Source: a virus | Taxonomy: Duplodnaviria > Heunggongvirae > Uroviricota > Caudoviricetes | Length of the DNA stretch: 34,130 nt | Reading direction: 5' to 3' (one strand) | IMG/VR virus record: IMGVR_UViG_2859799533_000006 | Shown here: positions 3,042-34,130 of the stretch, in pieces | How the letters are laid out: each line of letters begins with the position of its first letter | Numbering within the stretch: position 1 is the first letter of the stretch | Position numbers and translations under genes: made by a program | Notes under the pieces: model-generated | The model's database searches: none | What the model was told of the DNA's origin: nothing | Seen by the model: only the letters and a program-made list of their open reading frames with translations

Positions 3042-4169
3042 TTATTTGTGACATTGTGGTTGTTGTGCGACAGACATTGCTATTCGGCCCATATCCCAGA
3101 TAAAACCCGCCAGCTCACGTGCAACAGCAACAATTGTAATATTGACATTCTTTCCTTTGGCCTGAAGTTTTCGATACCTCTTACAAAGCCTGAGTTGAGC
3201 ATCCCATGCTCTGTCAATGACGGGGCGGGGTAAATTTTCCTGCCTTTTTTGTATTGCCGGACTGATGCGTGCCGGATGACGGTAACTCCACGCTGCCTCG
3301 ACCAATAGCTTTCTGGCATAGCTGTTTCCGGCTTTGGTAATGCTGCCCTGATGTCTGCTTCCACCCGATGAATATTCTGATGGCGTGATACCAAACCATG
3401 ACATCAGTTGTCGTGGATGTTCAAAACGGGTCAGATCACCCAGTTCAGAAATTAATCCAACCGCAGTAATAAACTGAATCCCTCGCATGGCTTGCAGCGC
3501 CTCTACTACCGGATACAGCCTCCATTCGGTAACGGCCTCCTTCAGGGCGGATTCCAGCCGTTCACATTGTGCCTGCCGGTCTTCTATTGTACGACGGTGT
3601 TCGTCAAAAGCTAATTGTCGCCAGGGACTTTCGAATGAGTATTTGCTGAGCCAGCGTCGGTGTGCAGGGCCCCAATCTGCTCGCCCGACATAATGGACCC
3701 CATGAACCAGAAGAAACGATTTCAGACGTTGCCTTGCATGCCGTAAATCATCGCGGGCAGATGCCCATGCCCGGGCCAAATCCCGGAATGCCTCATCTTC
3801 AATGCCGGGTACGTAGACAGCAGAAAGATCTCCTGCACGCAGTGAACGCACAAGTCTGATGGCATCACGGCGATCGGTTTTAACCCGCTCCCCCGGTTTT
3901 TTCGGGATAAGTGAGGGGGCGCAGACCATGCAGTCAAAACCGGATTTCACCAGCCGACGATAAAGTCCATAACCACAGGGCCCCGCTTCATAAACGATAC
4001 TGACCTGCGATGACTTTGACCTGAGACGTTTACAAAGATTCTGAATATCAGTAGGTGATGTGCCAATTTTACCCATCAGTTCAACAGGTTCTGAATTGAT
4101 AGCATAAGCGACAGTAATCGATTCTTTGTGAACATCTAACCCGACGTACAATGTGTTATTGTTGTTCAT
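3042..4169 (-). CDS. IS110-family transposase/recombinase
   Basis: 375 aa from MNNNNTLYVGLDVHKESITV (IS110-family N-terminal motif) with GGAGG 6 nt upstream of the ATG at 4169; the ORF track extends 16 codons further upstream to 4217. Confidence 0.85.
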   Translation of the reverse strand: MNNNNTLYVGLDVHKESITVAYAINSEPVELMGKIGTSPTDIQNLCKRLRSKSSQVSIVYEAGPCGYGLYRRLVKSGFDCMVCAPSLIPKKPGERVKTDRRDAIRLVRSLRAGDLSAVYVPGIEDEAFRDLARAWASARDDLRHARQRLKSFLLVHGVHYVGRADWGPAHRRWLSKYSFESPWRQLAFDEHRRTIEDRQAQCERLESALKEAVTEWRLYPVVEALQAMRGIQFITAVGLISELGDLTRFEHPRQLMSWFGITPSEYSSGGSRHQGSITKAGNSYARKLLVEAAWSYRHPARISPAIQKRQENLPRPVIDRAWDAQLRLCKRYRKLQAKGKNVNITIVAVARELAGFIWDMGRIAMSVAQQPQCHK

Positions 4170-4384
4170 GCTGGCCTCCGTGGTGGAAATACCGGGGTGT
4201 AGCAACAGCTCACCCATGCGGCTCTGACAACGATGTTAACCCGCGTTAAATATCCCACGTTGGCCAGCATCTGTCTCACGGAAAGTCATACTGCCTTACT
4301 ATCGTATTGATTGATCTGCATCAAATTAACGTAAAAGCAACTTCAGATAATACAAATCAGCAACACTGAATATGGGGAAACATT

Positions 4385-4585
4385 ATGTCATCAAAGAACA
4401 GAACCCGCAGAACAACAACCCGCAACATCCGATTTCCAAACCAGATGATTGAACAAATTAACATCGCTCTTGATCTGAAAGGTTCAGGAAACTTTTCAGC
4501 GTGGGTTATTGAAGCCTGCAGGAGAAGGCTGGCAACAGATGCAACGCATCTGCGCCCGGCCAGCATGACAAATAACGAGAAATGA
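4385..4585 (+). CDS. small hypothetical protein, possibly a YlcI-like prophage protein
   Basis: 66-aa ORF MSSKNRTRRTTTRNIRFPNQMIEQINIALDLKG...; family assignment from memory only. Confidence 0.35.
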   Translation: MSSKNRTRRTTTRNIRFPNQMIEQINIALDLKGSGNFSAWVIEACRRRLATDATHLRPASMTNNEK

Positions 4586-11458: not shown

Positions 11459-12508
11459 TCAAACGATTAAATCCTGAACTTCCCTGACTGTCTGCTCAAA
11501 ACGTCCGGTCTCCAGTTCAACGCCAATCGCACGACGCCCGAGCGCCAGTGCCGCTTTTACCGTTGAACCTGAGCCCATAAAAAAATCTGCAACCTGGTCT
11601 CCCGGACGACTGCTCGCGTTGATTATCTGCTGCAACATTTCTGCCGGTTTTTCGCACGGATGTTTCCCTGGATAGTACTGCACCGGTTTATACGTCCACA
11701 CATCGGTGTACGGCACCTGCACCGTCACACCGAAATACCTCCGCAAATTTTTATATTCACTCAGCAGTTCCATATACTGCCGGCTCAGCTCACTGTATGT
11801 GCTGACCAGTTGGTAATGGGACTTTTCCAGTTCTCTCCGCTGATGTTTCTCTTCTGCCACCCGGGCAAACAGCGACTGTAATTTCAGATAATCGCTTTCG
11901 TTCGGTAGCTGCCACTGACTGGCACTGAACCAGTGCGACACCATGTTTTTCTTTCCTGTGGCATCTGCAATCTGTTTTGCCGTTATCCCCAGGGCAGCTC
12001 GCGCATCACGAAAGTAAGCAATCAGCGGGGCCATCACATTCTGTTTCAGTACCCTGCCCTTCGCCTCATAGCCATCATCTTTCGGGCGGTACGGCCCCTG
12101 ATAATGTTCCGCGAACAGAATGCGCTCTGTGGCGGGGAAATACGCCCGCAGGCTTTCCTTGTTGCATCCGTTCCAGCGTCCGGACGGCTTCGCTCAGATA
12201 ATATGGTTCAGCACACTGAAGCGTTCACGCATCATGATTTCGATATCAGATGCCAGGCGATGACCACAGAACAGGTAAAGACTTCCGGCAGGTTTCAGCA
12301 CCCGCCAGAACTGCGCCAGACACTGCTCCAGCCACTTCAGGTAATCATCGTCGCCCTTCCACTGGTTATCCCAGCCCTCAGGCTTCACTTTAAAGTACGG
12401 CGGGTCCGTGACTATCAGGTCAACAGAATTTTCGGGTAACGACCGGATAAATTCCAGGCAGTCGGCGTTGATTAACTCACAACTGGATATTTTTACAGTA
12501 TTAAGCAT
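11459..12508 (-). pseudogene. phage DNA N6-adenine methyltransferase (DPPY motif) interrupted by an in-frame TGA at 12194..12196
   Basis: N-terminal ORF has LIVTDPPYF; reading continues in the same frame across TGA (...SVLNHII-TGA-AKPSGRWNG...KQNVMAPLIAYFRD...), about 350 codons in total. Confidence 0.8.
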
Positions 12509-13082: not shown

Positions 13083-13556
13083 CTATCGCGTTACCCTCTT
13101 TAACTGCCGCTCCGCCCATGCCTCTTCAATGTCAAACCGAACCACCAACGTATCGTAAAAGCGTTTCACTGATTTTTTCCACGTATCAAGCGTGATAGCA
13201 CTCGTCACTTTGCATATGGCATTAAATGCCTCCGTTGATGGTAGTCTTTCACAGCCACGACCACCACAACGCTGGCAGTCTCTGATAACAGGCATACCAC
13301 GTTTTACCGACTCTTCACGATGAATGGCGACACCACGCCCACGGCAATCCTTACAGGCGGTGGAAACCTCACCCTTTCCGCCACACTCCGGACAGGCAAC
13401 TTTTACCACCTCCCTGACTTTTTTCCATTCTTCCCAGTAAGACGGATACACGCCTTTTGTGCACTTTGCCCACACTGGTGGCTTACCATCCGGATACTGG
13501 ATCTTGTTTGTAAAAACCTCGCTTTCAATAAATTTTTTCCGTGACAGCAGGGGCAC
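13083..13556 (-). CDS. Q: late-gene antiterminator Q (zinc-finger part); has only a GTG start and is probably the 3' part of a frameshifted longer Q gene
   Basis: CPECGGKG...CKDCRGRG zinc-finger motifs; sits upstream of tR' and the tRNA trio; no ATG start, and overlaps the upstream ORF by 154 nt. Confidence 0.6.
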   Translation of the reverse strand: MPLLSRKKFIESEVFTNKIQYPDGKPPVWAKCTKGVYPSYWEEWKKVREVVKVACPECGGKGEVSTACKDCRGRGVAIHREESVKRGMPVIRDCQRCGGRGCERLPSTEAFNAICKVTSAITLDTWKKSVKRFYDTLVVRFDIEEAWAERQLKRVTR

Positions 13557-13903
13557 TGTTTTTTGCTCGCCGCGCTACGGGCATAATCTTCAAACGCATA
13601 CGAAGCCATAATGCGCATCACTACCGGTTTTATTTCTGCCGGAAGTTTTCTCAACGCCGCCACACGATCGCACCGACTGAGTGCATAATCTGCCAGTAAT
13701 TCTGTTGCCCGCGCCCTGTCATTCATACTGATGCCCATTTTCCCCAGGAACGCAGAAAACCCCATCTCAGCCCGATTCTGTGTCATGCCCTGCGCGGCCA
13801 TCACATCAGTGATACTCAGCGCATCTTTTGACGTTGAGGCCGATGCATCGGTCAGGCTAGGGGATTTTGGGGAGTAGTATTTCGGTAAATCTTCCAGTTT
13901 CAT
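13403..13903 (-). CDS. ORF upstream of and overlapping Q; likely the N-terminal part of the same Q gene displaced by a 1-nt indel in an A6 run
   Basis: MKLEDLPKYYSPKSPSL...RIMASYAFEDYARSAASKKQ then low-plausibility tail; two A6 runs (plus-strand T6 at 13533..13538 and 13559..13564) lie at the frame switch. Confidence 0.4.
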   Translation of the reverse strand: MKLEDLPKYYSPKSPSLTDASASTSKDALSITDVMAAQGMTQNRAEMGFSAFLGKMGISMNDRARATELLADYALSRCDRVAALRKLPAEIKPVVMRIMASYAFEDYARSAASKKQCPCCHGKNLLKARFLQTRSSIRMVSHQCGQSAQKACIRLTGKNGKKSGRW

Positions 13904-14274
13904 TTTTTGACCTGCTCTTCATGCATTATGGGGTAAATCTTCACCCCCATACGTCCACCAGATACTGGCTGACCACGAACGATATTGATTTCATCAAACT
14001 GCTCATCGTCCATTAACACTCCCGCATGCGTCAGCGCATCCAGCGGTGCTTTCAGGATATTGTCCAGGTCGCGACGACGCTTATCCGGTGGCTCTGCAAT
14101 CACCTTTATCGCCAGCCTTCCGGACAGGCTTAATTTCAGCCGCTGCTGGCGAACAATAAGCGCCACAGCCCGGCGATAACGCTTTCCCTCCTCCGAGATA
14201 AAATATGTGCTGCCACGGCGTCGCCAGTAAGTGTTCACCGTCGGCGGGTAAGGTAAAACCAAATCTATGAGCAT
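13900..14274 (-). CDS. rusA: Holliday junction resolvase RusA
   Basis: 124 aa with RusA signature (LPYPPTVNTYWRRRG...DKRRRDLDNILKAPLDALTHAGVLMDDEQ). Confidence 0.9.
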   Translation of the reverse strand: MLIDLVLPYPPTVNTYWRRRGSTYFISEEGKRYRRAVALIVRQQRLKLSLSGRLAIKVIAEPPDKRRRDLDNILKAPLDALTHAGVLMDDEQFDEINIVRGQPVSGGRMGVKIYPIMHEEQVKK

Positions 14275-14286
14275 CAGTCACCTCTT

Positions 14287-15282
14287 TTACCCAAGCACGC
14301 CAGTTGCAAAGGCGTGATCAAGAAAACGAAAAATTAAATCAACCTGAGAACCATGCTTTTCTTCGAACGCCAGAGGATCCGCATGAAGCTCGTTGTGATG
14401 CTCCCGACACAGCGGTAGCGTGAAAATATCGTGAGATTTTGTCCCCATTCAGCCCTGACCATGACCAATCAGGTGATGGGGATCGTCGGCTGGCTTACCA
14501 CAACACGCACACGGCTGTGTCTTCACCCAGCGTGTGTATTTCTCGTTAACCCAGCGGCGACGTTTTGGGCGTAACATAAAAGACTCCGGCGACTCCGGAT
14601 CCACTTTCAGCGCCAGCACCTTTTTCGCCTTATCCTGGATGATGCTGGTGGCAGGAACCGAAGGCACAAGGTCACTTTCCCGGGTGACAGACGGCACAAC
14701 AGGCTTCGGTAATCTCAGTGCCTTACGGGCTGCACTTTCCGGTAAGGCATCCGCCAGGTCATTACGAATCAGCCACCAGCACAGTTCCGGCATTGTCACA
14801 ACGTGACTGTCATCAAAACCGAGATCCCGACGCACAACAGACAACACCCAGCGGGCACAGTTATCCGTTGCCATTGATTCCAGCCGTTCCGTGAACTGGT
14901 CACGGAGAAGATTGTCACAGTGCCAGCACAGACGGATTGCGCCTGGCGCGTGCCGCATTGTGGTCATGTTCTCGCTGTGCCAGTCGGAATGAGGCCACTG
15001 ACAGCCCTTTTCACGAAGTAACCAGCTCTCAAGGCATTCCACGCCACCAGCACGACGGATCACCGCCTCATGGCGGAACACGGCCCGAACGGCAGGATCA
15101 TCCGCCAGCGGTTGTGATGCTGCCGGAACGGCACCGCTGGCGAAAGATGAATAACGTTCCGGCTCAGGCTCCAGCAGGACACGCCCCTGCATAAACAGGG
15201 GCATCAGCTCTGAACCGGGCCTGAACAATACAATCCCCATTCGCGGGGCAATTTCAGGAGTCAACAATGCTCTCACGGTCAC
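14287..15282 (-). pseudogene. prophage DUF968-like protein with C-terminal HNH-like zinc motif, interrupted by an in-frame TGA at 14449..14451
   Basis: Frame reads ...CACCGKPADDPHHLIGHGQG-TGA-MGTKSHDIFTLPLCREHHNELHADPLAFEEKHG...-TAA; the Cys/His motif is split by the stop. Confidence 0.65.
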
Positions 15283-15328: not shown

Positions 15329-15586
15329 TCACGCAGTAAACTCCTTCACCAGCGTTTCAAACTGGCTTACCTGGCCTTCCAGTTCCGCCACGCAATCCAC
15401 CAGCTCATCCACCGCCTTTTGTGTACGGTGTTTTGCCTGCAGCAGATCACGAAGCGCCGGAGTAAGCTGCTTGCGGAGCGTATCTTTTGCCACGCTCGTT
15501 TTTTCCATCTGTTCAGCACAACGAAGCATCTCCTGCGCCTGCCGACGAAGTTGTTCCGGTGAAACAGTGATTGTTCTGTTGTTCAA
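15329..15586 (-). CDS. hypothetical coiled-coil protein
   Basis: 85-aa ORF with its start overlapping the helicase gene stop (ATGA); no recognisable motif. Confidence 0.4.
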
Positions 15587-16984
15587 AATAAACGCTCCGT
15601 TTTACTGCCCGACATGCGGTTATTGCTGTATCTGCGCGGATTGCCCGGCGTCATGGGTGTGGAAAGAACCCGGGCACTCTCCTGGTCCACAGGCAGAAAA
15701 TGTCCGTTATGAAAACGCCGGTAAATGGTCCCGAGCGTGCCATTACGCTGTTTCGTGATGTTGATTTCTGCTATGCCTCTGGCCTGAGTTTCCGGGTTGT
15801 ATACCTCATCCCTGTAAAGCATCAGAATGATGTCGGCATCCGCCTCGATTTCCCCGGAGTTTTTCAGGTCCGAGTTCATTGGGCGTTTATTGGGTCTGGA
15901 TTCCACGCCGCGGGAGAGCTGGCTCAGAGCAATCAGCGGAAAACCGCCGGATTTTGCCAGGCTTTTAAGTCCCTTTGAGATTTCCCCCACCGCAAGGTCG
16001 TGACGCCCCGTACTGCGGGTTTTAATCAGGCCGAGGTAATCGACCACCACCAGCGCCGTTTCCGGGTGTTTCATCCGGTGGTGCTTCGTGGTTGCACATA
16101 TCTCATCAATGGGTCAGGTTTGCCTGGTCCACCATCCAGATATTACGCCCCGTCATTCGTCCCACGCCCTGCGAGAAACGCGCCCAGTCTTCATCTTCAA
16201 AACGGGCAACAGACTTAAGACGGGATACCGGCATTCCACCGGCAGCAGACACCATACGTTCACCAATCTGGATGTTCGCCATCTCCATGGTGAACAGAAG
16301 CACGCCATGCCCCTGCTCAGTCACCTTGTCGATGATGTCCAGCGCAAGTTCGGTTTTCCCCATCGAAGGACGGGCGGCAATGAATACCAGGTCTCCGGGC
16401 TCCATACCGCCCGTTTTTGCGTCCAGTTCATCAATACCGGTCATCAGCGCCCTGGATTTCTCCAGTCCCTGATTGCGGCATTCAACACGGTCGACCACTT
16501 CCAGAAGGACATCATCAATGTGAACCGGCTGAATGACGCCCTTTCCGGTCGACAGTGAGGCCATCATGTTCTGCACATCCTTCAGGGCATCCTCGGCTGC
16601 TTCACAGGTATACGCATCACGTAAATTCTGTAATGCTTCAGTCAGTGTTTTTTCTGCATCGCGCAGTGCGGCATTGCGCCGCAACGCTGCGACATAGTGC
16701 TCCAGTGAAGACTTCACCCAGGTTTTGCGTCCGGTGTCGGTAATCACCGGGGCAAGTTCCGGCATCTCATTGCACAGCAGTACGGGGTCAATGACGCCGG
16801 ATATGCGAGCCTGTCTGCAAATCCCCGCGTAAATATCCCGGTACTGACGCACAAAAAATACATCCGCCGGAAGTGTGGCCAGAATATCCATCACTTCCGG
16901 ATCGGCCCCACGCAGAAAAAACGCACCGATGACAGCGCCTTCCAGGTCATCGTTACGCCATGCCGGGGTGTTCTGGCTGGTCAT
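15583..16984 (-). pseudogene. DnaB-like replicative helicase, frameshifted near 16106..16116
   Basis: N-terminal ORF ends ...[14 protein letters not shown]-stop; the +1 frame continues [31 protein letters not shown]... with RecA-fold motifs ([28 protein letters not shown]); switch at a C-run. Confidence 0.8.
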
Positions 16985-17868
16985 GCGGCAACACCTCCGA
17001 TACGAGAACGGTAGCTGGGCCAGTTAAACGACAACCAGTTGCGCCCGCCATCGGTGATCCTGTCGGCAATCCGGGGACTGATGAACGCCCACAATTCTTC
17101 CGGTGAAAGATTGCTGATCAAGATAGTTGGCAAAATACCCTCATACCGGGCATTGATAATTTCCTGCAAAATGGCCATTTCAGCCGCACTGCCAAACTGA
17201 ACGCCGACTTCGTCGACAATCAGCAAATCCAGTGACGCATAATGCTCAATGACGTCATCCGCTGTTTTTTCACTGTCATTCCGCCAGCAGTTTTTCACAG
17301 CCCGGGTAAGGCGCATCACGTCGGTGATCTCCACACTGGCCAGATAGTTACGGATGATGTGTTTTGCCATTGATACCGCCAGATGATTTTTCCCGGTACC
17401 GCAACTGCCGGTCATAACAAGACTGGTACCGTTCTCCAGCATATCTGGCCAGTTCTCCGCATAGCGGCGACAGGCCGCAAGATTTCTGGCTGCGTCAGGA
17501 TTAACCTCCAGATAATTATCAAACTCGCAGTCCCGAAAACGCAGAGCAATTCCGGCGTTATCAGTCAGTTCTTCCGCCTTGAGGGACGACAGTTCCATGG
17601 TCAAATAACTGGCCTCAGCGATCAAGCAGTCAGGGCAGCATGAAATTTTTTCTCTGTCCTCGCCATTACGATCGCTCCACACCAGTATATGCGTACGATA
17701 TTTACCGTGTTTTTCGCAATATCCGCGACCTTCACGCATCAGGCAGGAACGATAAGGCCATGGCTTTTCGCCCTTCTGAGCAAATGCAATCTCTGCCCGT
17801 AACTCATCCATTCGCGCCTGTAGTCTTGTTTGTTTCTCACGTTGGTCAATCGTCATCATCGCTGTCAC
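16981..17868 (-). CDS. DnaC-like helicase loader (AAA+ ATPase)
   Basis: 295 aa with Walker A TGSCGTGKNHLA and Walker B LLIVDEVG; overlaps the helicase start. Confidence 0.85.
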   Translation of the reverse strand: MTAMMTIDQREKQTRLQARMDELRAEIAFAQKGEKPWPYRSCLMREGRGYCEKHGKYRTHILVWSDRNGEDREKISCCPDCLIAEASYLTMELSSLKAEELTDNAGIALRFRDCEFDNYLEVNPDAARNLAACRRYAENWPDMLENGTSLVMTGSCGTGKNHLAVSMAKHIIRNYLASVEITDVMRLTRAVKNCWRNDSEKTADDVIEHYASLDLLIVDEVGVQFGSAAEMAILQEIINARYEGILPTILISNLSPEELWAFISPRIADRITDGGRNWLSFNWPSYRSRIGGVAA

Positions 17869-17869
17869 C

Positions 17870-18860
17870 TCAGAATGTCAATTTGTTACTGGATTTACCG
17901 AATTTGTCAGACATGGCTCCCAGGCCAGCCAGGACATCAACCTGTCGCTGTCGCCCACCTCCGTGAGCGGCTGGCTGTTGCCAGTAATCTTCGAAGTGAC
18001 GATCGGGTCCAAAGAACGTCGCAGCCTGCTTCACGAACTGTGTGCCGGTATTTCCTGTAGCACGTACCCAGGCGGCATACCGCTTCACGCCATCAAGCAT
18101 GGTCTCCGGTTTTATTCCTTCCCTGATACGGGCTTTCCAGGCTTTGAAGGCTGCTGACTTGGAATTGCCACCAGCACGTTTGGGATATTCCTGCCAGGCC
18201 TGTTCAAATTCCGGTGAATATTCCTGTCGGGCAGAACGCGCTGGCGCAGACGCGTCAGCGGATGCATCAATAGTGTTTTTAGTCTCCGTTGTAATCTCTG
18301 TAGTAATCTCTGTATTTGTATCAACATTCGGCGTATCCCTGTTCCGTTATGACGTCGGGGGTGTTCCGTTTTAACGTAATAGCTGTATCGCTGATTGCAT
18401 TATTGCTGTTACTTTCTGGCGAAACAGAAGAAGGTGTGGTGATGGCCGCAATTGCCTGTGGGTTGATCCCGACAAACAAAATATTGCTGCATTTCACCCC
18501 ATCGAGCATTTCCACCGTGCGTAAATCCAGAGTAATAAACCCTGCATCGCGCAGACGCTTCAGCGCATCTGCGGTTTCCCTTTTCCCGAAACCAAACTGC
18601 TCAGCAAACGCCTGGTAGCTTCTTTGCAGTTTGTCGCCCTGAAAACGCTTGCGATATCCCAGCAACGCTCCGGTGTGCTCATCCCTGACCTCTGTCGGGC
18701 GGTACCAGTAAACGATCTCTGAAAGCAGAGCGATAGCCGTCGCATCCGGACGCCCACTGGGTAGTCGAATATATTTCCACCAGTTCGCAGGTGTAACATT
18801 GCCGGAAATATTAATTTGACCAATAGCCATAACTTCCGGTGTGGGGGCGTAACGGCTCAT
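17870..18860 (-). pseudogene. phage replication initiator (O-like), frameshifted near 18337 at a GGG run; contains an in-gene tandem repeat
   Basis: N-terminal ORF 18321..18860 ends ...DVITEQGYAEC-stop; the +1 frame continues DTPNVDTNTEITTEITTE...EYSPEFEQAWQEYPKRAGGNSK...MLDGVKRYAAW... to 17870; 12-bp tandem gtaatctctgta x2 at 18291..18314. Confidence 0.6.
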
Positions 18861-23448: not shown

Positions 23449-23756
23449 CTATATTTCCAGACATCTGTTATCACTTAACCCATTACAAGCCCGCTGCCGC
23501 AGATATTCCCGTGGCGAGCGATAACCCAGCGCACTATGCGGATGCCATTCGTTATAATGCTCGAACGCCTCTGCAAGGTTCTTTGCTGCCGTTAACCCGT
23601 CTGGTTTGGGCATGATACTGATGTAGTCACGCTTTATCGTTTTCACGAAGCTCTCTGCTATTCCGTTACTCTCCGGACTCCGCACCGCCGTGTTCTTCGG
23701 TTCAAGTCCCAACATCCGGGCGAACTGGCGTGTTTCATTAGCCCGGTAGCATGAAC
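23449..23756 (-). pseudogene. insD: IS2 transposase InsD, 3' fragment
   Basis: ORF 23449..23715 encodes the InsD C-terminus ([31 protein letters not shown]...); separated from the 5' part by IS629. Confidence 0.85.
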
Positions 23757-23798
23757 TGAACCGCCCCGGGTTTCCTGGAGAGTGTTTTATCTGTGAAC

Positions 23799-24689
23799 TC
23801 AGGCTGCCAGATCATCGTTTCCGATGGAAGCATAATAAGCTTTTTCTGCTTCTGCCGGAGGAGTATGGCCCAGCCTTTCCAGCAATCGTCGATTGTTATA
23901 CCAGTCCACCCACGTGAGTGTGGCCAGTTCCACTTCTGCACGGTTTTTCCAGCTCTTACGGTGTATTACCTCCGCTTTGTAAAGACCATTGATGCTCTCC
24001 GCCATCGCGTTGTCATACGAGTCGCCTGTACTTCCTGTTGATGCCAGTAATCCGGCTTCCTTAAGCCGCTGTGTGTAGGCCAGCGATACATACTGAGAAC
24101 CTTTATCACTGTGATGGACCGTGCCGGACGGTCGACGGGCCCATAACGCCTGCTCCAGAGCATCCAGCACGAATGTCGTTTCCATGGACGATGAGACCCG
24201 CCACCCCACGATGTATCCGGCAAACACATCAATGATGAACGCCACATAGACGAAGCCCTGCCATGTGCTGACGTAAGTAAAATCAGCCACCCACAGCTGG
24301 TCAGGTCGTTCTGCCACGAACTGACGGTTTACGCGGTCGCCTGCGGCAACGGCTTTCCGGCTGATGGTCGTACGGACCTTTTTACCCCGGAGAACACCGG
24401 CAAGTCCCATAACCGCCATGAGACGTGCCACAGTGCATCTGGCCACTCTGATACCTTCCCGTAACAACTGACGCCAGACTTTACGCACACCGTATACCTG
24501 ATGATTCCCATCGTATACGCGCAGTATCTCTTTCTTCAGCCAGTCATCGCGCTGCGCACGGGCACTGCGTTTATCAGGATGATGTCGCTGTTGCTGACAG
24601 TGGTAATACGTTGACGGGGCAATATGCAGTTCACTGCATACCGGTCCGACCCCGTACAGCTTACGCAGCTTATCCAGCAGTGGCATCAC
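23799..24689 (-). CDS. IS629 transposase OrfB (DDE integrase domain)
   Basis: 296-aa ORF with the IS3-family catalytic region; overlaps orfA in the arrangement for a -1 frameshift fusion. Confidence 0.9.
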
Positions 24690-25012
24690 TTTTTCCAGAG
24701 GCGGTCGAACTCCGCCTTCGCAAAATAAGCGGAAGCCTGGCGAAGGATATCGTTACTGCGGCGCAGTTCACGATTTTCACGCTCCAGCTCTTTCAGACGC
24801 TGACGTTCAGCGGTGGTGAGCCCTCCATCACCGCCCCCGGTATCCCGCTCATGCTGGCGAACCCAGACACGCAGAGTCTCCGGCGTACAGCCAATCTTTG
24901 GAGCAATGGAACAAATTGTCGCCCATTGTGAGTCATATTCGCCCTGACTTTCCAGAACCATACGGACTGCCCGTTGACGGACTTCGGGGGAAAAACGAGT
25001 ATTTTTAGTCAT
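24686..25012 (-). CDS. IS629 transposase OrfA
   Basis: 108-aa HTH/leucine-zipper protein [22 protein letters not shown]... Confidence 0.9.
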
Positions 25013-25066
25013 CCTGTTTACCTCTTTCTCAGGAAGTTTAGTCTCCAGGATTCCCGGGGCGGTTCA

Positions 25067-25667
25067 AACCATTATCCGTCAGCCACTCCACTGGAGACGA
25101 CGGAAGATCGTTGCCGAAGCGGCGTTCCACCGCTCCCAGCATGACGTCCTGTACTGTTTCACTGTTGAAGCCGCCGGTAGTCACCGCCCAGTGCAGTGCC
25201 TCACGATCACAGCAGTCCAGCGCGAACGTGACACGCAGTCTCTCTCCGTTATCACAGCAGAACTCGAACCCGTCAGAGCACCATCGCTGATTGCTTTCTT
25301 TCACGGCCACTCTGCCTGTATGTGCCCGTTTCGATGGCGGTACAGCAGGTTTTCGCTCAAGCAACAGCGCATTCTGGCGCATGATCCGGTAAACACGTTT
25401 GGCATTGATCGCAGGCATACCATCAAGTTCTGCCTGTCTGCGAAGCAGCGCCCATACCCGACGATAACCATACGTGGGCAGCTCTCCGATAACATGGTGT
25501 ATACGGAGAAGCACATCCGTATCATCAGTGTGACGACTGCGGCGGCCATCCATCCAGTCATCGGTTCGTCTGAGAATGACGTGCAACTGCGCACGCGACA
25601 CCCGGAGACAACGGCTGACTAAGCTTACTCCCCATCCCCGGGCAATAAGGGCGCGTGCGCTATCCAC
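25067..25667 (-). pseudogene. insD: IS2 transposase InsD, 5' fragment
   Basis: ORF 25038..25667 ([21 protein letters not shown]...) runs into the IS629 end at 25066. Confidence 0.85.
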
Positions 25668-25990
25668 TTTTTTGCCCGTCCATATTCAACGGCTTCTTTG
25701 AGGAGTTCATTTTCCATCGTTTTCTTGCCGAGCAGGCGCTGGAGTTCTTTAATCTGCTTCATAGCGGCAGCAAGTTCAGAGGCAGGAACAACCTGTTCTC
25801 CGGCGGCCACAGCAGTAAGACTTCCTTCCTGGTATTGCTTACGCCAGAGAAATAACTGGCTGGCTGCTACACCATGTTGCCGGGCAACGAGGGAGACCGT
25901 CATCCCCGGTTCAAAGCTCTGCTGAACAATTGCGATCTTTTCCTGTGTGGTACGCCGTCTGCGTTTCTCCGGCCCTAAGACATCAATCAT
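25625..25990 (-). CDS. insC: IS2 transposase InsC (OrfA)
   Basis: [56 protein letters not shown]... (121 aa). Confidence 0.9.
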
Positions 25991-26164
25991 CTGTACTCCA
26001 ATGACTAGTCTAAAAACTAGTATTAAGACTATCACTTATTTAAGTGATACTGGTTGTCTGGAGATTCAGGGGGCCAGTCTAACCGCCTGCCTTATTGCAC
26101 AATACGGTGAAAATTACATGCATATTGCCTGCTTATTTCTGCGTAAAGCATACGGGAGATAATA

Positions 26165-26365
26165 ATGCATCAGAAAACAGCAGAACACGAACAAACCAGA
26201 ATATTGCTGACCATCAAAAACGGGAAAGTAATATTCATTCGCCATGTTCATGACGATGAACTTGTAGGAACTCTTTCAACATTCCTGTTTATTGCAGAAA
26301 AGGCAGGATATGACGTTATTGCACCAGCAGATGAAGATGAAGATGAAGATGAAGATGAGGAATAA
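26165..26365 (+). CDS. small protein with poly-acidic C-terminal tail
   Basis: MHQKTAEHEQTRILLTIKNGKVIFIRHVHDDELVGTLSTFLFIAEKAGYDVIAPADEDEDEDEDEE; the tail is encoded by a (GATGAA)n repeat. Confidence 0.45.
   Translation: MHQKTAEHEQTRILLTIKNGKVIFIRHVHDDELVGTLSTFLFIAEKAGYDVIAPADEDEDEDEDEE
26330..26362 (+). repeat. hexanucleotide tandem repeat (GATGAA)x4 plus GATGAG-GAA
   Basis: Read directly from the sequence at the 3' end of ORF 26165..26365. Confidence 0.9.
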
Positions 26366-26370
26366 ATATC

Positions 26371-26967
26371 ATGCAATACGATGAATTCCAGGCTGAAGCA
26401 ACAGCCAATGGTATACGAACTGGCAGTATGACGATTGATTATCACGACGCCATACGTCGTCTGGATGCCGGAGAATTCGATACTCCTAATGTGCGAGGTT
26501 TACGTATCCTTCAGTGTCTGGCGCAAGCCGACGAAGCAGGATTACTGGGTAAACTTCCGGTTGAGATGAAGGTTGCTCAGTGGCGATGGTTGTATGTGAC
26601 GACATTCATCAACGAAGAAGAAGACAAGAACGGCACAATTGATATCCTGAATGAACACGGAACAACTGAACACGGAACAACTGAACACGCCGTGGTATAT
26701 AACGGGATGTATGGGTTTATGACGATATATCCCGGCCCCATTCGATTTGCCTTACAACAGTATATTGAATGGAATTTAATTCAAAAATACGGCGAAGCTG
26801 AAGGAATGGGAAGAGCGCTGTTTCTTTATCAGAAAATGCTCACTACTTCCCCTGATAAAGGTTTCATTCTTTCAGATATGGGTCGAGAAGGGCTTGAAAT
26901 CCTTCTGGATGAAATTATTAACGAAATGAATACTCATGGCATGCAATCCGAAACAGATATTAAGTAA
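26371..26967 (+). CDS. hypothetical early-left-operon protein with internal EHGTT repeat
   Basis: 198-aa ORF starting 5 nt after the previous stop; contains a 15-bp tandem repeat encoding EHGTTEHGTTEH. Confidence 0.55.
   Translation: MQYDEFQAEATANGIRTGSMTIDYHDAIRRLDAGEFDTPNVRGLRILQCLAQADEAGLLGKLPVEMKVAQWRWLYVTTFINEEEDKNGTIDILNEHGTTEHGTTEHAVVYNGMYGFMTIYPGPIRFALQQYIEWNLIQKYGEAEGMGRALFLYQKMLTTSPDKGFILSDMGREGLEILLDEIINEMNTHGMQSETDIK
26653..26689 (+). repeat. 15-bp tandem repeat gaacacggaacaact, about 2.5 copies
   Basis: Copies at 26653..26667 and 26668..26682, partial at 26683..26689. Confidence 0.9.
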
Positions 26968-27801: not shown

Positions 27802-28242
27802 CTATCAGGCACTGCGCGAGGCGGCGGAACAGGCAACGCAAGATGAATGGGTAGCATATATTTTGCCGGGTCATAACGGCATTTATCCTGCGCGCACGTC
27901 TGAGGGTAGGCATTGCGGATACTTTATTGACTGGCCTGGCGTCTGTCAGGGGCGGGAGAGCATCAGCATCAGAACCTACGCAGTGAATTGCAATGACGCA
28001 TGGCTAAACACCGAAGGTGATGACATCTCCGGCTCATACGTTAAGTACAAAGACCATCAGGAAGTGGTTGCCGCTCTTGAAGCCAAGTGCGCGGCGCTGG
28101 CAGCGGAGAATGCGGGAATAAAGTCTGCAATTCCAGAATCACGGGATATTGAGGATGACAATGACAATATGGATGACGTATCTCTCGCGGAAGACTTCGG
28201 GTTCAATCATGCAATAGAACGGATGAGGAGACAGATTGAACC
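27788..28242 (+). pseudogene. Ead/Ea22-like protein, C-terminus disrupted by IS629 insertion two codons before the native stop
   Basis: MSKIDYQALREAAEQATQDEWVAY... is the Ead/Ea22-like N-terminal signature; reading across the 3-bp target duplication gives ...RMRRQID-T-stop. Confidence 0.65.
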
Positions 28243-28278
28243 GCCCCGGGTTTCCTGGAGAGTGTTTTATCTGTGAAC

Positions 28279-29169
28279 TCAGGCTGCCAGATCATCGTTT
28301 CCGATGGAAGCATAATAAGCTTTTTCTGCTTCTGCCGGAGGAGTATGGCCCAGCCTTTCCAGCAATCGTCGATTGTTATACCAGTCCACCCACGTGAGTG
28401 TGGCCAGTTCCACTTCTGCACAGTTTTTCCAGCTCTTACGGTGTATTACCTCCGCTTTGTAAAGACCATTGATGCTCTCCGCCATCGCGTTGTCATACGA
28501 GTCGCCTGTACTTCCTGTTGATGCCAGTAATCCGGCTTCCTTAAGCCGCTGTGTGTAGGCCAGCGATACATACTGAGAACCTTTATCACTGTGATGGACC
28601 GTGCCGGACGGTCGACGGGCCCATAACGCCTGCTCCAGAGCATCCAGCACGAATGTCGTTTCCATGGACGATGAGACCCGCCACCCCACGATGTATCCGG
28701 CAAACACATCAATGATGAACGCCACATAGACGAAGCCCTGCCATGTGCTGACGTAAGTAAAATCAGCCACCCACAGCTGGTCAGGTCGTTCTGCCACGAA
28801 CTGACGGTTTACGCGGTCGCCTGCGGCAACGGCTTTCCGGCTGATGGTCGTACGGACCTTTTTACCCCGGAGAACACCGGCAAGTCCCATAACCGCCATG
28901 AGACGTGCCACAGTGCATCTGGCCACTCTGATACCTTCCCGTAACAACTGACGCCAGACTTTACGCACACCGTATACCTGATGATTCCCATCGTATACGC
29001 GCAGTATCTCTTTCTTCAGCCAGTCATCGCGCTGCGCACGGGCACTGCGTTTATCAGGATGATGTCGCTGTTGCTGACAGTGGTAATACGTTGACGGGGC
29101 AATATGCAGTTCACTGCATACCGGTCCGACCCCGTACAGCTTACGCAGCTTATCCAGCAGTGGCATCAC
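28279..29169 (-). CDS. IS629 transposase OrfB
   Basis: Identical to the copy 1 OrfB except one residue (Cys for Arg in SWKNCAEVE). Confidence 0.9.
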
Positions 29170-29492
29170 TTTTTCCAGAGGCGGTCGAACTCCGCCTTCG
29201 CAAAATAAGCGGAAGCCTGGCGAAGGATATCGTTACTGCGGCGCAGTTCACGATTTTCACGCTCCAGCTCTTTCAGACGCTGACGTTCAGCGGTGGTGAG
29301 CCCTCCATCACCGCCCCCGGTATCCCGCTCATGCTGGCGAACCCAGACACGCAGAGTCTCCGGCGTACAGCCAATCTTTGGAGCAATGGAACAAATTGTC
29401 GCCCATTGTGAGTCATATTCGCCCTGACTTTCCAGAACCATACGGACTGCCCGTTGACGGACTTCGGGGGAAAAACGAGTATTTTTAGTCAT
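29166..29492 (-). CDS. IS629 transposase OrfA
   Basis: Identical to copy 1 OrfA. Confidence 0.9.
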
Positions 29493-29776
29493 CCTGTTTA
29501 CCTCTTTCTCAGGAAGTTTAGTCTCCAGGATTCCCGGGGCGGTTCAGATACCTGAAACGCCAACCACTGATGCTTTCCTGGCTGAAGTCCGGGCGCAGGG
29601 GTGGATGCTGCTATAGAAGCTGCAAAAAATCTGGTGGCCCAAGAATATGAGTGTAAGGATTTCAAAGCGGCGCAGAGTGATTGCTGTATGCACCCTAGTT
29701 CAGACCTGGTAGGGAAGGTTGAAATGACTGAGTGGTTAGTTGACTTTGCTGCCCAGCTTCGCAAAGGAGGCAATCA

Positions 29777-30686: not shown

Positions 30687-31854
<1,168 letters not shown>

Positions 31855-33349: not shown

Positions 33350-33423
33350 AGAATGAATAAAGCATTTGGGTGATGCTGCCAACTTACTGATTTAGTGTAT
33401 GATGGTGTTTTTGAGGTGCTCCA

Positions 33424-33699
33424 GTGGCTTCTGTTTCTATCAGCTGTCCCTCCTGTTCAGCTACTGACGGGGTGGTGCGTAACGGCAAAAGCACTGCCGG
33501 ACATCAGCGCTATCTCTGCTCTCACTGCCGTAAAACATGGCAACTGCAGTTCACTTACACCGCCTCTCAACCCGGTACGCACCAGAAAATTATTGATATG
33601 GCCATGAATGGCGTTGGATGCCGGGCAACTGCACGCATTATGGGCGTTAGCCTCAACACGATTTTACGTCACTTAAAAAACTCAGGCCGCAGTCGGTAA
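33424..33699 (+). CDS. insA: IS1 protein InsA
   Basis: [43 protein letters not shown]... (91 aa, zinc finger plus HTH). Confidence 0.9.
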
Positions 33700-33743
33700 C
33701 CTCGCGCATACAGCCGGGCAGTGACGTCATCGTCTGCGCGGAA

Positions 33744-34130
33744 ATGGACGAACAGTGGGGATACGTCGGGGCTAAATCGCGCCAGCGCTGGCTGTTTTAC
33801 GCGTATGACAGGCTCCGGAAGACGGTTGTTGCGCACGTATTCGGTGAACGCACTATGGCGACGCTGGGGCGTCTTATGAGCTTGCTGTCACCCTTTGACG
33901 TGGTGATATGGATGACGGATGGCTGGCCACTGTATGAATCCCGCCTGAAGGGAAAGCTGCACGTAATCAGCAAGCGATATACGCAGCGAATTGAGCGGCA
34001 TAACCTGAATCTGAGGCAGCACCTGGCACGGCTGGGACGGCTGGGACGGAAGTCGCTGTCGTTCTCAAAATCGGTGGAGCTGCATGACAAAGTCATCGGG
34101 CATTATCTGAACATAAAACACTATCAATAA
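33744..34130 (+). CDS. insB: IS1 InsB (expressed as InsAB' by programmed -1 frameshift)
   Basis: [44 protein letters not shown]...; stop at the last three bases of the window. Confidence 0.85.

Follow-up and report, generated by a model that had tools for sequence, protein, structure and literature searches.

Is the in-frame TGA that interrupts a DUF968-like gene of this prophage the mark of a dead gene, the boundary of a divided but working one, a recoded codon or an error in the record? We addressed this question in a stretch of 34,130 nucleotides (IMG/VR record IMGVR_UViG_2859799533_000006; hereafter the window, meaning the whole stretch that was analysed), for which a preliminary description had reported a stop at positions 14449–14451 inside a gene with an HNH motif. 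The gene is very probably an ordinary nonsense pseudogene, in which one G→T transversion turned the Gly276 codon of a lambdoid-prophage DUF968/YdfU-like gene from GGA into TGA.

A premature stop codon divides a DUF968 gene

Translation of the minus strand from 15282 to 14284 yields one frame with one internal stop, reading ...CACCGKPADDPHHLIGHGQG, stop, MGTKSHDIFTLPLCREHHNELHADPLAFEEKHGSQVDLIFRFLDHAFATGVLG, stop, and so bears out the in-frame TGA at 14449–14451, which appears on the plus strand as 'tca' at the same positions. Ahead of this TGA, the ORF measures 277 amino acids (aa) if it is begun at the GTG at 15282 and 275 aa if it is begun at the GTG at 15276, the latter being the start annotated by PGAP in intact DUF968 homologues. 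In the translation of the window, 275 codons precede the TGA and 53 come after it. The 53-aa ORF opens with an ATG immediately 3′ of the TGA, this ATG being the codon of the ancestral Met277, and an AGGG sits four bases upstream of the TGA. The layout is as follows.

15276 to 14287, minus strand: DUF968 (YdfU-like) pseudogene with an in-frame TGA inside it
14452–15276, minus strand: N-terminal 275 codons of the pseudogene, ending ...CACCGKPADDPHHLIGHGQG; PF06147, 169.6 bits
14449–14451, minus strand: premature TGA replacing GGA (Gly276), from alignment with intact homologues
14290–14448, minus strand: last 53 codons of the pseudogene as a separate ORF (MGTKSHDIFTLPLCREHHNELH...); PF06147, 77.9 bits
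14287–14289, minus strand: natural TAA stop of the DUF968 gene

The match of the upstream piece to the Pfam profile DUF968 extends over profile positions 2–120 and that of the downstream 53-aa piece (E = 1.2e-21) over positions 122–171, so that the proposed DUF968 identity of the gene holds for both pieces; each exceeds the gathering score of 27.8 bits, an intact E. coli orthologue scores 264.3 bits, and the premature stop falls exactly at profile position 121. Because the two pieces match DUF968 separately, they are not a chance pair of ORFs. The frame of the domain is interrupted in the window by the TGA at codon 276, at which 20 of 20 relatives have glycine, and, judged by its sequence, the window copy is a pseudogene of the DUF968 family and not an intact member. 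The 53-aa ORF was also considered as an independent small gene, a reading that we rejected because it covers DUF968 positions 122–171 and, in every intact relative, runs on from the upstream part without a break.

By megablast, 3,357 of 5,426 complete E. coli genomes contain the gene, the highest identity being 98.1%; it is annotated there as 'DUF968 domain-containing protein' and in some records as ydfU. The intact E. coli copies are 990-nt genes that stand in the order helicase, small ORF, DUF968, RusA and Q. The same nin-region context, with rusA and Q beside DUF968, is present in the window, and Stx-converting phages carry an equal module. RusA and Q have been noted before as neighbours of group 7 (DUF968/DUF1364) members (PMC5714182).

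One substitution at an invariant glycine codon

When the window gene is set against two intact E. coli orthologues (loci L001 and L002; 98.1% and 94.4% identity), codon 276 differs by a single base, GGA→TGA. On the coding strand this is G→T, at window base 14451, and all 162 of the 162 bases after the stop match the closest intact relative. The preliminary description had allowed for the possibility that the last 53 codons lie outside the protein; alignment with intact homologues showed the opposite, as these are 329–330 aa long, have glycine at the position of the stop codon and continue with the same 53 residues.

Gly276 is invariant in 20 of 20 intact homologues of 329–330 aa, from E. coli, Salmonella, Phytobacter, Citrobacter and others, and the residues T279, K280, H282, D283, P288, L289, C290, R291, H294, E296, L297 and H298 are invariant in the same 20. 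A scan with a degenerate DNA pattern, using one genome per species, gave 21 loci representing at least nine genera, in which codon 276 reads GGA (13 loci), GGG (five), GGT (two) or GGC (one) and is a stop in none. The genera with a Gly codon are Escherichia, Salmonella, Citrobacter, Phytobacter, Kosakonia, Pantoea, Pectobacterium, Serratia and Xenorhabdus, and synonymous variation surrounds the Gly276 codon across the 21 representative genomes. An exact-pattern scan of species-representative genomes for the TGA allele returned no match. It follows from these comparisons that the 53 codons are part of the protein, that purifying selection acts on the glycine and that the TGA arose secondarily as a nonsense mutation; one G-to-T substitution accounts for the stop.

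The stop falls within the predicted HNH motif

The claim that the stop splits a Cys/His motif holds good: the residues that are invariant among intact homologues comprise C256, C258, C259, H267 and H268 upstream of it and C290, H294 and H298 downstream. The conserved residues expected of an HNH finger are present (a histidine at the end of the first strand, His/Asn metal ligands on the helix and flanking cysteines as zinc ligands), here carried on two ORFs. The TGA thus separates the CxCC/HH half of a putative HNH zinc-finger motif from its C..HH..H half, and motif and model suggest that the presumed sites for zinc and for the catalytic metal are cut apart by it. DUF968 proteins have been described as having a C-terminal zinc-finger HNH motif (PMC4118853), and DUF968 has been placed together with DUF1364 (YbcO, PDB 3g27) in His-Me finger (HNH) group 7 (PMC5714182).

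An AF2 model of an intact homologue with 94% identity (mean pLDDT 66) places a strand at 265–269, a loop at 270–284, a strand at 285–289 and a helix at 291–299, the loop being floppy and of low confidence. When this modest model was compared with the PDB by Foldseek, the top matches were HNH proteins (P1 Ref 3plw, Cap5 and ScoMcrA), all non-significant with E values of 0.57 or worse. The Pfam family HNHc_6 scored 22.2 bits, under its cut-off of 26.6, and a profile-versus-PDB search gave YbcO (3g27) as a marginal match over residues 258–311 (E = 0.52). For a ββα-metal fold, these results are no more than suggestive.

Translation of the window allele would end after 275 residues. The N-terminal domain would remain in the product, as would the cysteines of the CxCC motif and the HH on β-strand 1; β-strand 2 and the helix (TK.HD...PLCR.HH.ELH) would be lost, and with them the remaining zinc and metal ligands. 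As judged from the motif and the modest structure model, the predicted nuclease site would be unable to form; from the AF2 layout and the published assignment of the family to His-Me group 7, we infer a loss of the predicted nuclease function.

The N-terminal half of the protein holds a second invariant Cys/His cluster, CQWPH..H...LCWHCD, at DUF968 residues ~92–124 (window ~14905–15003, minus strand) and outside the Pfam coverage. AF2 gives this cluster a strand-strand-helix arrangement (104–109, 112–117 and 118–124) with pLDDT values of ~80–90, and it may be a second zinc-binding module or a degenerate His-Me-like one.

The TGA allele is shared by many assemblies of one lineage

The exact 275-aa product occurs on at least 20 contigs, and eight loci that differ from one another elsewhere (99.4–100% identity) have one and the same 993-nt gene, TGA included. 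One of the contigs, CP026866.1, is 100% identical to window positions 4449–25276, so the window derives from that genome or from one almost the same, and we take the CP0267xx–CP0268xx accession series to be Shigella reference genomes. The 275-aa product itself has been deposited as SPZ87804.1, 'bacteriophage protein [Shigella boydii]'. When a 61-mer around the TGA was searched against the 5,426 complete E. coli genomes, none of the 1,541 matching records was perfect, the best having one mismatch.

This distribution bears on the reading that the stop is a sequencing or assembly error in a single record. The change is a single base, and resequencing had been suggested, both of which would suit an error; against it, the same base recurs in separate assemblies, on at least 20 contigs, several of them closed chromosomes with differences from the window at other sites. 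With an identical allele in many independent assemblies, we regard an error as excluded for all practical purposes. The distribution indicates that the TGA is an old lesion, fixed in its lineage.

Re-initiation and recoding as alternatives

Some features speak for a functional split gene. UGA–AUG re-initiation could supply 275-aa and 53-aa chains that rebuild a working or regulated HNH module, the stop and start codons being adjacent (UGAAUG) with AGGG just upstream, and the break falls in what the model represents as a low-confidence surface loop between two β-strands; alternatively, the 275-aa product could be kept as a nuclease-dead DNA-binding protein. The downstream codons, moreover, are intact in all carriers. 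However, neither sequence element is new: Met277, of which the ATG is the codon, is ancestral and almost invariant, and the conserved GQG accounts for the AGGG. Because all copies of the TGA allele are identical, the intact downstream codons are uninformative on selection. The allele is also restricted to one lineage and absent from the 5,426 complete E. coli genomes, and the phage-essential neighbours helicase and Q are broken too. We consider a functional split gene very improbable, and we give similarly little credence to a gene that is not dead, whether because its two chains reconstitute the HNH finger or because the 275-aa protein is retained since an active nuclease harms the lysogen; the idea of a harmful nuclease is hinted at by the many independent breakages in other prophages.

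Programmed recoding of the UGA, whether to selenocysteine or through efficient read-through, draws on the presence of an in-frame UGA, the Sec codon, within a Cys/His-rich metal site. Yet the homologues have glycine at this position, with Cys or TGA in none of the 41 sequences examined, the flanking sequence is the same as in intact alleles, and the RNA after the UGA folds with −13.9 kcal/mol (z = +0.99), a value that 173 of 200 shuffles equal or better. RNA folding against these shuffles gave no SECIS-type hairpin downstream of the UGA, and an Rfam scan of the region after it matched no family. A selenocysteine or read-through signal was rejected on the strength of the folding and the Rfam scan, and the chance that the codon is recoded seems to us vanishingly small.

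The preferred reading of a plain nonsense pseudogene leaves room for minor products. From the adjacent ATG and AGGG, a 53-aa peptide could arise by re-initiation. Among the stop codons of enterobacteria, UGA is the leakiest, and traces of a full-length G276W protein made by spontaneous UGA read-through are possible and would be incidental. The 53 downstream codons are undamaged and every carrier has the same gene, so these sequences do not in themselves directly indicate relaxed selection on the DUF968 gene.

Independent breakage of DUF968 genes in other prophages

About 316 contigs have the identical 53-aa C-terminal ORF as a gene call of its own. We looked at ten such lone-ORF loci, which were chosen for being broken and from which no loss rate can therefore be derived; the TGA allele is present at two of them (L012, which is CP026866.1, and L014). 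At the other eight (L011, L013 and L015–L020, from E. coli and Shigella prophages), DUF968 is broken by mutually different lesions, namely a 5-bp duplication, −1, +1 and −2 frameshifts and two IS insertions. The independently broken copies show in total five different frameshifts and two IS insertions, and wherever the eight loci were aligned, codon 276 is still GGA. The differences among the lesions led us to reject a common, perhaps programmed, frameshift as the source of the lone 53-aa ORF.

Neighbouring prophage genes are decaying too

The proposal that the gene is interrupted within a broader pattern of decay gains support from lesions in neighbouring genes, several of them within one operon with DUF968. 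The genes with features called in the window are as follows.

11459–12508, minus strand: phage DNA N6/N4 methyltransferase, with TGG→TGA (W105 to stop) at 12194–12196
13083–13903, minus strand: antiterminator Q, split into ORFs of 166 aa and 157 aa, with one A lost near 13532
13900–14274, minus strand: rusA (Holliday-junction resolvase family; PF05866 RusA), 13 nt after the natural DUF968 stop
15583–16984, minus strand: DnaB-type replicative helicase, split into 292 aa and 163 aa, with an extra C at 16113

The helicase +1 frameshift is common to all eight TGA-carrying loci and is therefore about as old as the TGA. The Q −1 frameshift and the W105 stop of the methylase are found in only a subset of the eight: Q is intact at 273 aa in some sister strains, and the methylase is intact at 349 aa in L005, L006 and L009 and broken elsewhere in the gene in L008. 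An upstream hypothetical gene at 17870–18860 has lost one G near 18336 (a −1 frameshift); as this gene and Q are intact in some sister strains, their lesions are younger. The DnaC/IstB-like ATPase gene (16981–17868, minus strand) has an in-frame deletion of 21 nt (seven codons) at ~17812, relative to E. coli AR_0372. The preliminary description had counted the DUF968 stop as the third in-frame stop in a phage or IS gene of the window; this stands at least in part, in that the methylase TGG→TGA is another such stop, and the remaining phage-gene lesions that we found are frameshifts.

A phage without helicase and Q can neither replicate nor express its late genes, as lambdoid biology dictates. 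With both genes broken, one would expect the nin-region genes to be free of selection by now. We propose that the DUF968 nonsense mutation arose in an ancestor of the Shigella lineage, together with the helicase frameshift or near to it in time, and that it would then have been inherited vertically in a prophage no longer under selection, in which more frameshifts, another nonsense mutation and insertions of IS elements would accumulate.

The IS load of the window is heavy. IS-related segments lie at 361–2750, 3042–4217, 23753–25066, 25067–26606, 28235–29548, 31177–31854 and 33368–34130 of the window, and they include IS66-family and IS110-family transposases, several IS3-family ones, an integrase-core fragment and an IS1-like end. 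Two of the IS3-family copies, ~1.31 kb each, are near-identical, and another IS3-family element adjoins one of them. In sister strains, the sequence at 25067 is joined directly to ~23756, so the IS3 copy at 23753–25066 is a recent insertion in this strain.

The prophage also holds a PmrD-family ORF (PF11183; 10534–10869, plus strand), which is called as 111 aa at the identical locus L004 and lies between the methylase gene and a SASA/DUF1737 gene, on the strand opposite to its neighbours.

Significance and relation to known systems

In annotation, the 275-aa and 53-aa ORFs should be joined into a single pseudogene instead of standing as two 'bacteriophage proteins'. Both are already in public records as separate entries, and there is no new mechanism here. 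The nested lesions offer a handful of markers by which lineages of this Shigella prophage can be told apart, and their nesting, with the helicase frameshift and the TGA in all carriers and the Q and methylase lesions in a subset, shows that the prophage has long been dead. Beyond annotation, the finding matters little.

Among known proteins, the DUF1364 protein YbcO of prophage DLP12, a member of His-Me finger group 7 in the scheme of Jablonska et al. 2017, shares with the DUF968 protein a weak motif, C..HH..G.GTK..D...C..CH.E, which spans exactly the region that the stop splits, with a similarity below significance (E = 0.52). YbcO is a single domain of 96 aa, whereas the DUF968 protein has an extra N-terminal part of 250 aa. 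YdfU of the Qin prophage and the DUF968 proteins of lambdoid prophages belong to the same family and are 329–330 aa long when intact; the YdfU- and Stx-type DUF968 genes occupy the same place, between the replication genes and rusA–Q, and the intact E. coli copies are 94–98% identical to the window gene. Unlike YdfU and its relatives, the window copy has a TGA at codon 276, and its last 53 residues cannot be made in the same chain.

Pseudogenes are a general and well-known phenomenon in Shigella and in the cryptic prophages of E. coli. The window prophage is likewise marked by nonsense mutations, frameshifts, IS insertions and lineage-nested lesions, and it is no different in kind from these other decayed prophages.
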